Source: Escherichia phage Esco_phi_B-01
DNA length: 64,000 nt
Sequence record: OP292222.1
Strand: one strand, 5' to 3'
This document shows, piece by piece, positions 40,907 to 44,241 of this stretch (positions are counted from its first letter, which is position 1; each line of letters opens with the position of its first letter). The translations under genes and the position numbers were made by a program. The notes under the pieces were generated by a model. It saw nothing but the letters and a program-made list of their open reading frames with translations. It was not told the DNA's origin and ran no database searches.

Positions 40907-41053
40907 ATGGGTAATCGAATTTATAAAGTAAAGCTGCACGGTAAAGTGATTACTACCGTTAGCTTTAATTTTTATATCAGCGCTGACTGCGCCCGCGATA
41001 TCCTCATCGAGGAAGGATATAGCGAATACATCCAAATTGAAGAAGTTCTTTAA
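40907..41053 (+). CDS. small hypothetical protein (48 aa)
   Basis: RBS tgaggaaaatatt before ATG. Confidence 0.4.
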   Translation: MGNRIYKVKLHGKVITTVSFNFYISADCARDILIEEGYSEYIQIEEVL

Positions 41054-41069
41054 TTCTGAGGAAAATATT

Positions 41070-41294
41070 ATGAAACTTTTTAAAGATATCGCAGTTGGTG
41101 AAAAATTTGTCTTAGGTAATGGTCAACAATTGATTCGTATTTCTCCTTTAATGGATAATAGCGAGCGGCCTATTCGTACTGAAAACTGTTTGGATTATCC
41201 TTTTTATCAAAAGCGTTTTGCTATTGAAAATAATACCGAGTGTTTCACGGTTGATGAACTGATGGAATTATCAGAAGAAGTCGACTCTGAATAA
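41070..41294 (+). CDS. hypothetical protein (74 aa)
   Basis: RBS tgaggaaaatatt before ATG. Confidence 0.45.
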   Translation: MKLFKDIAVGEKFVLGNGQQLIRISPLMDNSERPIRTENCLDYPFYQKRFAIENNTECFTVDELMELSEEVDSE

Positions 41295-41308
41295 TTGAGG
41301 AAATTATC

Positions 41309-41653
41309 ATGTCTAAAGTATTTTTTGGTAATGCTAAGATTATGTTCTTTGAGCAACTCAGTCTTAAAGAGGCATTGGCAGCCTTCAATCAAGAACTGGT
41401 TACTGGGTTAGATTCAAAAACTATGGCAAGCGCGGATTTCGTTTTCGTTCAAGACCCGGATACAGGGTTTTATCGATTCATCAAATTCCGTATGAGCATG
41501 GACCCTGACTATCGTAGTGCTTACTATGTGAGTTACGAAAATGTTATCAAAGAATTACGTGATACCTATGGACGTGCTTTGAACCCACTGAATAAGGTAT
41601 ATAATGCGTCCTTTTATACGAGCGGATTTATTTTAGAACAGCTACAAAAATAG
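41309..41653 (+). CDS. hypothetical protein (114 aa)
   Basis: ORF track; RBS gaggaaa. Confidence 0.5.
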   Translation: MSKVFFGNAKIMFFEQLSLKEALAAFNQELVTGLDSKTMASADFVFVQDPDTGFYRFIKFRMSMDPDYRSAYYVSYENVIKELRDTYGRALNPLNKVYNASFYTSGFILEQLQK

Positions 41654-41681
41654 TTTACAACCTCGAGAATCATGTTATAAT
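41653..41681 (+). promoter_or_regulatory. T4-type early promoter (GTTTAC - 17 - TGtTATAAT)
   Basis: consensus elements. Confidence 0.6.
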
Positions 41682-41730
41682 GGTTCTCGTTGACTGGATA
41701 ACAAAACATTAATCTACTGAGGAAATTGAT

Positions 41731-42180
41731 ATGAATACTTATATGACTCGCGGTAACGTTCTGTCTGCTGGTGCTACTACTGTTGCTTATGTTAAGAATG
41801 GCGAATACCAAAATGGTAAGCCTTCTAAAGAAATCTCAGCTCAGCCAGGCTTCTACTTCTTTGTTAAAGGTGAAGCAGATTCTCGTGTCGTAGCCGCTCG
41901 CTTTTATGTCGGTAACCAACGTTCAGCTCAAGGTCTTGATGGTATTGTGGCTAACATCCGTAAGAAACGTTCTCAATCAGCTCGCACTATGGCAGTGAAT
42001 GGTGTGGTGTATGAAGTTCTTTATGTGCCAGCTTCTAAAATGAAACCTCTGACTACAGGCTTTGGTAAAGGTCAAATTGCAATGGTTTTCACTCGCAATC
42101 ATAGTTCAGACCTTCAGACACTGGAAGAAATGAACCGTATGTTGGCCGATAACTTCAAATTCGTTCTGCAGGCTTACTAA
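41731..42180 (+). CDS. ndd: Ndd nucleoid disruption protein
   Basis: C-terminal half [16 protein letters not shown]...FTRNH...[21 protein letters not shown] essentially identical to T4 Ndd. Confidence 0.8.
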
Positions 42181-42260
42181 TGAGTAATTTCCATAACGAA
42201 CATGTGATGCAATGGCACCGTCATAATCTGAAATTAACCGGTGTCTTCGGACGCCCTTGA
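42180..42260 (+). CDS. stp: Stp-like 26-aa peptide (T4 Stp modulates the host EcoprrI restriction / PrrC anticodon nuclease system)
   Basis: [26 protein letters not shown] versus remembered T4 Stp [26 protein letters not shown]; ATG shares the A of the ndd stop. Confidence 0.6.
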
Positions 42261-42267
42261 GGAAAAT

Positions 42268-42417
42268 ATGAATATTTTACAAGGTTTTGCTGCGGGTATT
42301 TGGACTTATCTAGGTATTTGGACTATTACGACGGGTGAAACTTCGGTCATTTCTCAGGCCATTCCACAATTCATATTGGCATTTGTTCTGATTCTACAGG
42401 CCTTTACCAAAAAATGA
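42268..42417 (+). CDS. small membrane protein (49 aa), cassette copy A
   Basis: RBS tgaggaaaat; hydrophobic. Confidence 0.4.
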   Translation: MNILQGFAAGIWTYLGIWTITTGETSVISQAIPQFILAFVLILQAFTKK

Positions 42418-42477
42418 TTAAGAAATCTTGGGTTACTCGGTAGCCCTTTCTTCTTTATTGGTAACACTGTATTACGG

Positions 42478-42552
42478 AGTAATTCCCATAACGAACATGT
42501 GATGCAGTTCTATCGTAACAATCTTAAAACTAAAGGCGTCTTCGGACGCTAA
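42478..42552 (+). pseudogene. stp paralog remnant lacking the initiator ATG (encodes ...[24 protein letters not shown])
   Basis: second repeat copy; start codon replaced, internal GTG/ATG at 42499/42502 would give only a 16-17 aa product. Confidence 0.4.
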
Positions 42553-42562
42553 TGAGGAAAAT

Positions 42563-42724
42563 ATGATTATCATAGTTTTTATTGAACTTATTACGGCTAT
42601 AGTCTGTTCGGTTTGCTTCTTTTTAGGTGTGTGGACCCCTGGTCCGGTATTCTTAAGTTTTCTGTTTATTGGCTGGGTTCTTTCTACTTTTGTCGGTTTA
42701 CTTAAGATGATTAAAAATGATTAA
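42563..42724 (+). CDS. small membrane protein (53 aa), cassette copy B, unrelated to the copy A ORF
   Basis: RBS tgaggaaaat; two hydrophobic segments. Confidence 0.4.
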   Translation: MIIIVFIELITAIVCSVCFFLGVWTPGPVFLSFLFIGWVLSTFVGLLKMIKND

Positions 42725-42857
42725 GAAAATCTTGGGCTACTCGGTAGCCCTTGCTGCTTTATTGGTAGCACTGTATTATGGAGTAATATTCGGTCTTATC
42801 CAAGTTGTGCTTTTTATTTCCGATGTTATTATGGTTATTCATTCACTAGTATGGTAA
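42717..42857 (+). CDS. small membrane peptide (46 aa); its copy-A counterpart at 42414-42443 is frameshifted
   Basis: intact only in copy B (aagaaaatc vs aagaaatc). Confidence 0.35.
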   Translation: MIKKILGYSVALAALLVALYYGVIFGLIQVVLFISDVIMVIHSLVW

Positions 42858-42861
42858 AATT

Positions 42862-44241
42862 ATGGCTGATGTAATTGATACCCTTTTTAAACAATCCTTA
42901 GATGTTTACGATGATGCTTTTACTCGTCGTGACTTAAAAAGCATTATCGACAATGAAGCGCTGGCTTACGCAATGTATACTGTCGAAAACCGCGCCATTC
43001 CAAATATGATTGATGGCTTTAAACCCGTACAACGTTTTGTAGTTGCTCGTTGTCTTGATATGGCTCGTGGTAATAAAGAAAAATTCCACAAATTAGCTTC
43101 TATTGCAGGTGGTGTAGCCGACCTTGGATATCACCATGGTGAAGGCTCTGCTCAAGAAGCAGGTGCTCTGATGGCTAACACTTGGAACAACAACTTCCCA
43201 CTGTTGGATGGCCAGGGTAACTTTGGTTCTCGATTGGTTCAAAAAGCAGCGGCATCTCGTTATATTTTTGCACGTATTGGAACTAATTTCGCAAAGGTTT
43301 ATAAGGATACAGAATATGCTCCGGTTCATGCGGATGTCGAACATAAGCCACCAGCTTTTTATCTGCCTATTATTCCTACTGTTCTTCTTAATGGTATTTC
43401 CGGTATTGCAACTGGTTATGCAACTAATATTCTTCCTCATAGTTTTGATTCTGTTAAGAAAGCTGTATTGCAGGTTCTTCAAGAAAAACGCGTAACCAAG
43501 CCTAAGGTGGCTTATCCGGAATTCCGTGGTGATGTGGTTGAGATTGAACCAGGTAGTTATGAACTACGAGGCACGTATAAGTTCACATCTCGAACCCAAA
43601 TGCATATCACAGAAATCCCGTACAAATACGACCGTGAAACGTATGTGGCCAAGGTATTAGACCCTCTAGAAGACAAAGGGTATATCACATATGATGACGA
43701 TTGTGACGAGAATGGTTTCGGCTTCAAGGTTAAGATTCGTAAAGAATATGAATTGCCTACTGAAGAAAATAAGAAGCACGAAAAAATCATGAAGGACTTT
43801 GGGTTAATCGAACGCCGTTCACAAAACCTGACTGTCATTAATGAGAAAGGTAAACTTAAGGTTTACGAAGATGCAGTTGAACTGATTCGTGATTTCGTTG
43901 AGGTCCGTAAGACCTTTGTACAAAAACGTATTGATGGTAAAATCATCGAAACCGAAGAAGCTTTCAAACTGGCATTGGCTAAAGCCACCTTTATCAAAGA
44001 TGTTATTGATGGAATTGTGGTTATCCAAGGTAAGACTCGTAAGGTTTTAACCGAAGAATTGGCTGGTAATAAAGTCTACGGCGAATATGCCGATAAACTC
44101 GTAGCAATGAATATTTTCCATATCACTTCCGATGAAGCTAAGAAACTGGCTTTGGAAGCCAAGGCTAAGAAAGAAGAGCACCAATACTGGAAAACCACTG
44201 ATGTTGTAACTGAGTATGTTAAAGATTTGGAGGCTCTATGA
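42862..44241 (+). CDS. 52: gp52 DNA topoisomerase II medium subunit (GyrA-like)
   Basis: 459 aa; RAIPNMIDGFKPVQR motif typical of the GyrA/ParC N-terminus. Confidence 0.92.
   Translation: MADVIDTLFKQSLDVYDDAFTRRDLKSIIDNEALAYAMYTVENRAIPNMIDGFKPVQRFVVARCLDMARGNKEKFHKLASIAGGVADLGYHHGEGSAQEAGALMANTWNNNFPLLDGQGNFGSRLVQKAAASRYIFARIGTNFAKVYKDTEYAPVHADVEHKPPAFYLPIIPTVLLNGISGIATGYATNILPHSFDSVKKAVLQVLQEKRVTKPKVAYPEFRGDVVEIEPGSYELRGTYKFTSRTQMHITEIPYKYDRETYVAKVLDPLEDKGYITYDDDCDENGFGFKVKIRKEYELPTEENKKHEKIMKDFGLIERRSQNLTVINEKGKLKVYEDAVELIRDFVEVRKTFVQKRIDGKIIETEEAFKLALAKATFIKDVIDGIVVIQGKTRKVLTEELAGNKVYGEYADKLVAMNIFHITSDEAKKLALEAKAKKEEHQYWKTTDVVTEYVKDLEAL

Follow-up and report, generated by a model that had tools for sequence, protein, structure and literature searches.

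A repeated stp-(ac slot)-52.1 segment in Escherichia phage Esco_phi_B-01 as the probable scar of an unequal crossover between two T-even-type haplotypes

Escherichia phage Esco_phi_B-01 (sequence record OP292222.1) carries a segment of about 300 bp twice, head to tail, between the nucleoid disruption gene ndd and the topoisomerase gene 52. The window analysed here is a 64,000-nucleotide (nt) stretch of this genome. Each unit of the repeat begins with an stp sequence, encloses a gene for a small membrane protein in the ac slot, and ends with all or part of gene 52.1. The repeat is very probably a scar left when two T-even-type genomes, which carried different ndd-stp-(ac slot)-52.1-52 haplotypes, crossed over unequally at a microhomology. 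The two units are nearer to alleles of other phages than to each other, and they meet in a 7-nt microhomology.

Gene content of the locus

Positions 41700-43000 of the window are 99.6-99.8% identical to UP19, vB_EcoM_IME281 and EcWhh-1, and ~96-97% identical to JS98 and NC-G. All five phages are Dhakavirus (Straboviridae, Tevenvirinae), and by sequence the window is assigned to a JS98-like Dhakavirus. The features of the locus are listed in Table 1.

Table 1. Features of the ndd-to-52 region, with positions in the window and lengths in amino acids (aa)
Feature	Position	Strand	Description
Promoter-like site, sigma-70 (early), predicted	41654..41681	+	TTTACA-16-TATAAT, 11/12 matches; TG before the -10 hexamer
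ndd	41731..42180	+	Nucleoid disruption protein, 149 aa, Dhakavirus type; PF06591; stop overlaps stp start (TAATG)
Left repeat block, copy 1	42175..42275	+	End of ndd, stp, and Shine-Dalgarno sequence and ATG of the next gene
First stp, intact	42180..42260	+	26 aa, Gaprivervirus-type allele; PF08133, phrog_6763
C(UUCG)G tetraloop hairpin	42240..42255	+	In the GVFGR codons of the first stp; 6-bp stem, -9.2 kcal/mol
AcA	42268..42417	+	Ac-family small membrane protein, 49 aa; phrog_2501; own Shine-Dalgarno sequence, GAGG-N7-ATG
Right repeat block, copy 1	42410..42483	+	5' remnant of gene 52.1; ends at the crossover microhomology
52.1' remnant	from 42414	+	Frameshifted 5' remnant of 52.1, ~23 codons; reads MIKKSWVTR, then stop
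Terminator-like hairpin, predicted	42430..42446 (tail to 42456)	+	GGGTTACTCGGTAGCCC then TTTCTTCTTT, in 52.1'; resembles an intrinsic terminator
Left repeat block, copy 2	42470..42570	+	Found by repeat search and blastn
Microhomology GAGTAAT	42477..42483	+	7 nt; joins 52.1 (donor haplotype) to stp (recipient haplotype)
stp' remnant (second stp)	42478..42552	+	Lacks ATG; codons 2-25 and stop, F4S; canonical Dhakavirus/T4-type stp
B	42563..42724	+	Small membrane protein, 53 aa, phrog_9347; usual Dhakavirus occupant of the ac slot; GAGG 7 nt before ATG
Right repeat block, copy 2	42713..42787	+	5' part of intact 52.1
52.1, intact	42717..42857	+	46 aa, DUF7396; start overlaps B stop (ATGATTAA)
52	42862..44241	+	Topoisomerase II medium subunit; PF00521; conserved right-hand anchor of the cluster

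The 26-aa product of the first stp matches PF08133 at 55.3 bits (gathering cut-off 25) and phrog_6763 at E=2e-19. Its gene lies where Stp is expected, directly downstream of ndd and upstream of the ac slot, and by sequence the product is classed as a genuine member of the Stp family. The stp' remnant scores 64.8 bits against PF08133. An initial annotation of this DNA, made from the sequence alone, had recognised Stp and placed the locus upstream of gene 52, and both identifications held. A functional tie between the cargo genes and the Stp/PrrC system found no support.

AcA matches phrog_2501 at E=3.9e-20, and T4 Ac matches the same family at E=2.2e-25. The two proteins are ~23% identical in amino acids. 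The Ac family shares the motif (G)ETSVxSQ and has invariant residues W12, T19, S26, V27, Q30 and Q34. The best relatives of AcA are 73% identical in amino acids (ENA contig ERZ27235398 k119_14484) and 49% identical (an "acridine resistance protein" of Klebsiella Jiaodavirus), and AcA itself was seen only in the stacked arrangement. In the classical T4 literature, Ac is associated with an acridine sensitivity or uptake phenotype of infected cells.

Protein B matches phrog_9347 at E=1e-25, a family that also takes in 54-55-aa open reading frames (ORFs) of dhaeg, VR5, VR25 and VR26. No homology between the Ac and phrog_9347 families was detected by profile-profile comparison (hhalign probability 0.8%). 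Homology between the two cargo ORFs, which fall in different PHROGs, was rejected on these grounds, in agreement with the initial description of the central 49- and 53-aa ORFs as unrelated. The product of 42717-42857 matches PF24129 at 78 bits (cut-off 27) across profile positions 1-46 of 46, and matches phrog_3595; the 46-aa peptide gene first described in the second unit is indeed an intact 52.1. AcA, B and gp52.1 are all strongly hydrophobic.

Repeat structure

Two pairs of blocks were found by direct-repeat search. The left blocks (42175-42275 and 42470-42570) are 101 nt long and 78% identical, at a spacing of 295. The right blocks (42423-42483 and 42727-42787) are 61 nt long and 92% identical, at a spacing of 304. 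A 16-nt exact repeat, AAAAATGATTAAGAAA (42410-42425 and 42713-42728), extends the right blocks to 42410-42483 and 42713-42787. In a blastn comparison of the first unit with the second, the right block aligned over 66 nt (92.4% identity, E=1e-23) and the left block over 94 nt (79.8%, E=6e-21). When the unit was searched against the whole window by blastn, the matches had E=1.5e-21 and 7.8e-19, and no further significant copy was found (next best E=0.015, 16 nt). Tandem Repeats Finder reported nothing in the repeat region because the centres of the units are unrelated.

The unit of ~296 bp that had been described initially is thus present twice, with its blocks 295-304 bp apart. The start of a third copy, also described, consists only of the motif GGAGTAAT (42776-42783) inside the intact 52.1. 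The motif occurs in single-copy JS10 and T4 as well, and is read here as the crossover microhomology rather than a third unit. The intact 26-aa Stp ORF and the frameshifted peptide gene downstream of it were both found as first described. The frameshift in 52.1' is an A4-to-A3 change at 42423-42425, with AAGAAATC in place of AAGAAAATC.

The repeated blocks are the conserved coding flanks of the slot, namely stp and the 5' end of 52.1, and not regulatory or mobile elements. No promoter-like site was found on the + strand within 42180-42860; the nearest is the site at 41654-41681 upstream of ndd. No Rfam family was found in 41000-43500. The lack of a promoter-like site, an Rfam family or an extra block copy is evidence against a dedicated element.

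Parentage of the two units and the junction

The product of the first stp is identical in amino acids (100%) to Stp of Gaprivervirus VR25, VR26 and UPEC01, and the gene is 95-96% identical in nucleotides. The adjacent ndd is 96.7% identical in nucleotides to JS10 and only 72-74% to Gaprivervirus. The stp' remnant with its intergenic region is 98.9% identical in nucleotides to JS10/dhabil and 94.7% to T4, and only ~80% to the first stp. Gene B is 98.1% identical in nucleotides to JS10, the intact 52.1 is 96.5-97.9% identical to JS10, dhabil and MX01, and the 52.1' remnant is 87-91% identical to Dhakavirus 52.1. On these identities, the second unit is assigned as an ordinary Dhakavirus unit and the first as foreign. 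Because each copy is nearer to alleles of other phages than to its partner, the array is read as a merger of two pre-existing haplotypes. The initial description, a tandemly duplicated cassette with diverged cargo, did not survive this comparison, in which each copy was much nearer to single-copy alleles elsewhere.

Three boundaries define the join. The intact 52.1 reads CTGTATTAT / GGAGTAAT / ATTCGG (TATTATG / GAGTAAT / ATTCGG), where T4 52.1 has TATTACGGAGTAAT. The ndd/stp boundary reads GCTTACTAAT / GAGTAAT / TTCCAT (TACTAAT / GAGTAAT / TTCCAT). The window junction reads CTGTATTACG / GAGTAAT / TCCCAT (TATTACG / GAGTAAT / TCCCAT). These sequences place the crossover in the heptamer GAGTAAT (42477-42483), with approximately codon 23 of 52.1 joined to codon 2 of stp. 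The second stp has no ATG because a crossover at codon 2 removed it; no point mutation is needed, and the second stp frame never held an alternative start. The initial annotation was right that this copy lacks the ATG and is closer than the first to T4 Stp; loss of the ATG by mutation is not what the junction indicates.

The identical junction is present in five isolates (JS98, IME281, UP19, EcWhh-1 and NC-G) and in the Logan assemblies ERR11523140, ERR3179013 and ERR3179108. Dhakavirus and Gaprivervirus share the first 33 nt of stp without a mismatch (100% identity). The left edge of the foreign sequence lies after these 33 nt, which would allow ordinary homologous exchange at that side.

In the proposed crossover, haplotype 1, an unsampled donor, would have had an Ac-family gene behind an Stp allele of Gaprivervirus type. 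Haplotype 2 would have been the ordinary Dhakavirus unit, with canonical stp followed by a phrog_9347 gene. Exchange at GAGTAAT would have joined haplotype 1 at about codon 23 of 52.1 to haplotype 2 at codon 2 of stp. The product would have the order ndd - first stp - AcA - 52.1'::stp' - B - 52.1 - 52.

The locus in related phages

The slot between stp and 52.1 is held alternately by an Ac-family or a phrog_9347 gene in three genera. In Tequatrovirus, the Ac family is found in T4 and phrog_9347 in AugustSocin. In Gaprivervirus, UPEC01 has an Ac-family gene, and VR25, VR26 and DCP80 have a phrog_9347 gene. In Dhakavirus, phrog_9347 occupies the slot in JS10, dhabil, MX01, C6, dhaeg and VR5, and the Ac family occurs in stacked arrays only. 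Jiaodavirus KP179 has an Ac-family gene as the sole occupant.

Stacking of the two families was found with three types of junction. The first (J1) is the JS98-type of the window, in which Ac precedes B. The second (J2; Gaprivervirus TH40, EAWsc9 and one DCP80 copy) has the order stp - B - 52.1' (14 codons)::stp' (from approximately codon 9) - Ac - 52.1, where both stp sequences are of the same allele type as the first stp of the window. The third (J3; Tequatrovirus REP4 and ENA contig ERZ27235398 k119_14484) has the order stp - B - ATGATTAAGAAATCCTATATTTAATAATGAGG - Ac - 52.1, and its join leads from nt 14 of 52.1 (plus a 7-nt CTATATT) to the Shine-Dalgarno region after stp. The breakpoints are scattered, at nt ~67, ~42 and ~14 of 52.1, and at nt 4 of stp, nt ~25 of stp and the post-stp Shine-Dalgarno region. 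Because the three junction types have different breakpoints, they argue for rare illegitimate recombination filtered by viability, and perhaps by selection, and not for a site-specific hotspot. Recombinants are expected to be filtered for keeping the Shine-Dalgarno sequence and stop codon of each cargo gene. The initial annotation had proposed a recombination hotspot that swaps small-gene cargo. Repeated swapping of small membrane-protein genes in the slot is seen in the related phages; a mechanistic hotspot is not. The comparison also turned up both single-copy and stacked arrangements.

Stacking is rare, with at least ~9 phages among about 500-700 records that have the locus. This count is a lower bound, as it comes from a concatenated-query tblastn for both cargo families that is insensitive to divergent Ac alleles. 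In the J1 clade, two characters, a 57-aa ORF and a 31-nt deletion in 52.1', are each present or absent, and all four combinations occur. These combinations point to recombination, or to recurrence, inside a stretch of a few hundred bases.

The 57-aa ORF (phrog_5941) is hydrophobic and optional between ndd and stp in many relatives, and its stop overlaps the stp start. It is absent from the window and present in the close relative JS98. KP179 has the 57-aa ORF and lacks an stp ORF in the interval examined. In VR5, no stp separates a 59-aa ORF from the phrog_9347 gene. The 53-aa ORF B of vB_EcoM_005 has been joined by a deletion to the 3' end of 52.1. The DCP80 record (PQ671644.1, 140,978 bp, "complete genome") contains two versions of the ndd-to-52 region, at ~33.3-34.1 kb and ~136.7-137.8 kb, one single-unit and one stacked. 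It also has runs of N, and is probably a mixed or chimeric assembly. In AugustSocin (MZ501052, Tequatrovirus), ndd is interrupted, its annotation being split into two ORFs (part 1 and part 2). The phrog_9347 gene of this record is labelled "acridine resistance protein", which looks like annotation by position and not by homology.

Stp alleles and predicted expression

By inhibiting type Ic restriction (EcoprrI, EcoR124I), Stp unmasks or activates latent PrrC (PMC3014915). The N-proximal 18 residues are critical and near-invariant, and null mutations cluster at residues 4-14, according to the account of Penner et al. 1995 that is given in PMC3014915. The first Stp of the window differs from T4 Stp at residues 12, 13, 15, 19, 20 and 26. 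Within the N-proximal 18 residues, 15/18 match, the differences being F12W, Y13H and N15H. This WH-H allele is fixed in Gaprivervirus and present in 39 records, so the first stp is probably functional. Its specificity may differ from that of canonical Stp because of the differences at residues 12, 13 and 15.

The stp' remnant shows a different pattern. In NC-G and two Logan contigs (ERR3179013 and ERR3179108), a 31-nt deletion (Δ31) places stp' in the reading frame set by the 52.1 start. The fusion product of 33-35 aa (MIKKSWATVLRSNFHNEH...) is still recognised as PF08133 (61 bits), and the fusion copies carry V9A and N15I, or T19I and a stop at G24. The stp' remnants of three lineages have 5 non-synonymous or nonsense changes vs 2 synonymous, and intact stp has 2 vs 7-10 (Fisher p=0.03 for all observations, 0.07 for unique events). 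The pattern suggests that stp' is a probable decaying pseudogene and that the central chimera 52.1'::stp' is in decay.

The cluster is most likely co-transcribed because a promoter-like site lies upstream of ndd and none lies inside the array; the whole cluster would be read from that early promoter. We infer from the gene boundaries that translation of the first stp would be coupled to ndd (TAATG), that AcA and B would be translated from their own GAGG sequences, and that 52.1 would be coupled to B. The net effect would be one live Stp (WH-H, presumed anti-type Ic) and both of the alternative membrane proteins rather than one. Comparable stackings with other breakpoints in other genera suggest that a phage can at least bear both cargo genes and perhaps even benefits from them.

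A broader proposal would make stp/ac-slot/52.1 a counter-defence locus for allele exchange. In it, FY-N and WH-H Stp would have different type I restriction/PrrC specificities, Ac and phrog_9347 proteins would have non-redundant roles in host range or exclusion, stacking would be repeatedly selected, and the Δ31 sub-lineage (NC-G, ERR3179013, ERR3179108) would re-express a second Stp as a fusion. As a whole this proposal is quite doubtful.

Two further observations concern stp. Its DNA is more conserved across genera than that of its neighbours (stp' 94.7% identical to T4, ndd 66%, gene 52 ~82%), which suggests that stp is often exchanged horizontally or that its nucleotide sequence is itself constrained. 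In several phages whose genomes (~36-48 kb) are much smaller than those of the T4 type, tblastn gave weak, recurrent matches at 61-71% identity to the N-terminal 18-25 residues of Stp. These phages include BEK6 (MN158208), vB_EcoS_FP (MT682706), C1 (NC_054651) and the Salmonella phages Segz_1, seszw and vB_SenS_ST1UNAM. One of these matches is annotated "anticodon nuclease activator family protein".

Comparison with known systems

The T4 cluster ndd-stp-ac-52.1-52 (NC_000866, 165209-166040) has the same gene order, orientation and families as the window, the same start/stop overlaps (TAATG and ATGATTAA), and an stp that ends in the same UUCG hairpin. Against the single unit of T4, the window has two units in tandem; its Stp allele differs, its Ac is divergent, and it also has an extra, unrelated 53-aa gene and a probably dead 52.1'::stp' chimera.

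The stacked arrays of TH40/EAWsc9/DCP80, REP4 and ENA contig ERZ27235398 k119_14484 likewise combine the Ac and phrog_9347 families, flanked by a single intact stp and a single intact 52.1. They have a 52.1' remnant at the join, with or without an stp' remnant. They differ from the window in their order (B then Ac), in their breakpoints, and in their Stp and Ac alleles.

Tandem duplications in T4, such as those of the rII region, are classically head-to-tail, have a novel join at very short homology and are expected to be unstable, since one unit is lost when the copies recombine with each other. Compared with these, the array of the window is heterologous and is old enough to be shared by at least two ICTV species (Dhakavirus JS98 and Dhakavirus ime281).

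Nearest in concept is the modular exchange in hyperplastic regions of T4-type phages that is known as PeSL shuffling (Arbiol et al. 2010, PMC2839356; Comeau et al. 2014, PMC4122927). A PeSL cassette is expected to have a sigma-70 early promoter and a stable intergenic stem-loop that serves as terminator or attenuator, and to recur at many sites in the plastic regions. The window resembles PeSL shuffling in that conserved flanks of a plastic early region enclose small non-essential ORFs that are exchanged, inserted or stacked, direct repeats flank an ORF, and excision and re-insertion are possible. However, the flanks in the window are coding stp and 52.1, not promoter-plus-stem-loop cassettes, and no sigma-70 motif lies within 42180-42860. 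Joins of the type seen in the window are also illegitimate (0-7 nt of microhomology), whereas PeSL exchange is homologous, between motifs of ~100 bp. A reading of the repeat as PeSL cassettes was rejected, as there is no promoter motif and there are no dispersed copies.

Alternative explanations

Several points weigh against the proposed crossover between two haplotypes. A single-copy donor, with the first stp, AcA and 52.1, is absent from 50,697 phage records searched as DNA and protein. It is likewise absent from JGI metagenomes, and a protein and junction search of IMG/VR gave only IME281 and JS98. A set of 5.8 billion proteins gave only AcA itself and one 73% relative. Because no single-copy donor was found, haplotype 1 is deduced and not observed, and the nearest AcA relative (on ENA contig ERZ27235398 k119_14484) itself lies in a stacked array. 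The remnants of J1 and J3 share the A4-to-A3 change at the start of 52.1'; these two junction types may not be fully independent, or the homopolymer slipped twice. The statistic for decay of stp' is weak when unique events alone are counted (p=0.07). Finally, the product alone does not distinguish an unequal crossover from integration of a circle.

In that alternative, a circle of ~295 bp, composed of the 3' part of the first stp, AcA and 52.1' joined to the 5' part of stp, would have been excised and then integrated by homologous recombination in the stp of a Dhakavirus. The product would be the one seen, the first 33 nt of stp offer a patch of homology that is 100% identical between the genera, and a mini-circle mechanism has been documented for plastic regions of T4-type phages (PMC2839356). 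This route is unlikely. The promoter and the dispersed copies typical of PeSL are absent, the + strand having no sigma-70 site in 42180-42860 and the blocks being coding and unique in the window, and the same illegitimate GAGTAAT join would still be required to form the circle. A homologous stretch of 33-100 bp is near the bottom of the range in which T4 recombines efficiently.

A functional system of two Stp proteins is very unlikely. It would express the second Stp by re-initiation, or as the 33-35-aa 52.1'-Stp fusion of the Δ31 variants, and so broaden anti-restriction specificity. The fusions are in frame and still score as PF08133, and the first and canonical Stp differ at residues 12, 13 and 15, within the N-proximal 18 residues critical for activity. 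The fusion copies, however, carry V9A and N15I, or T19I and a premature stop, which is a pattern of decay. In the window, stp' has no in-frame start and has F4S, and residue 4 belongs to the 4-14 cluster of null mutations. The candidate for re-initiation is ATG 42500, overlapped by the TGA of a 24-aa ORF that starts with TTG; its 16-aa product would lack residues 1-9.

Duplication in situ of one stp-cargo-52.1' unit within Dhakavirus, followed by divergence, would account for the head-to-tail geometry, the 295-304 bp period and the conserved ends, yet it is barely credible. The centres have no detectable similarity and fall in different PHROGs, next to flanks of 78-92% identity. Single-copy counterparts nearly identical to each half occur in other phages and genera, the copies are not each other's closest relatives, and the amino acid sequence of the first Stp is exactly the Gaprivervirus allele.

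A mis-joined repeat in the assembly, for which only the general risk attached to repeats speaks, has a negligible chance of being the explanation, as the same junction was found in five isolates that different laboratories sequenced independently on different platforms (2007-2023) and in three independent read-set assemblies from Logan, data of the kind against which the initial annotation had wished to see the repeat checked, and as blocks of 60-100 nt with 78-92% identity and unique centres are not prone to collapse or expansion.

Hairpins and initiation regions

The last codons of stp (G-V-F-G-R) form a UUCG hairpin directly before the Shine-Dalgarno sequence of the next gene, in both copies (42240-42255 and 42535-42550) and in T4. 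The folding z-scores of this hairpin are weak (-0.8 and -2.3). A 7-bp hairpin, GGGYTACTCGGTAGCCC, lies in the first codons of 52.1, and its counterpart in the intact 52.1 is at 42734-42750. The copy at 42430 alone has a U-rich tail. Two G-to-T changes create this T-rich tail, TTTCTTCTTT, and give the hairpin, which stands between the two units, its terminator-like score. The hairpins at 42240-42255, 42535-42550, 42430-42446 and 42734-42750 are all inside coding sequence or remnants.

Stereotyped translation-initiation regions, TGAGGAAAATATnATG, lie upstream of several small early genes (41056-41074, 41717-41735, 42257-42269 and 42552-42570). They supply microhomologies of the TAATGAG type at gene boundaries and show up as short direct repeats.

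Significance

The array is ordinary phage mosaicism at unusually high resolution. Modular shuffling in plastic regions of T4-type phages is already known, and no new kind of element or mechanism is revealed. The mild surprise is that one pair of unrelated cargo genes became stacked in three genera, with differing breakpoints.

The finding explains an unannotated gap of 300 bp in JS98-type genomes, which serve in phage-therapy studies, and it corrects their annotation to one presumably live stp, one probably dead stp and two distinct membrane-peptide genes. It also provides a base-resolved example of how small accessory genes are gained, by illegitimate crossovers between neighbouring conserved genes, with survivors that keep starts, stops and ribosome-binding sites. 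The recurrent stacking of Ac and phrog_9347 genes and the spread of one Stp allele across genera make the roles of these tiny proteins cheaply approachable by experiment, through restriction alleviation, PrrC activation and acridine sensitivity.

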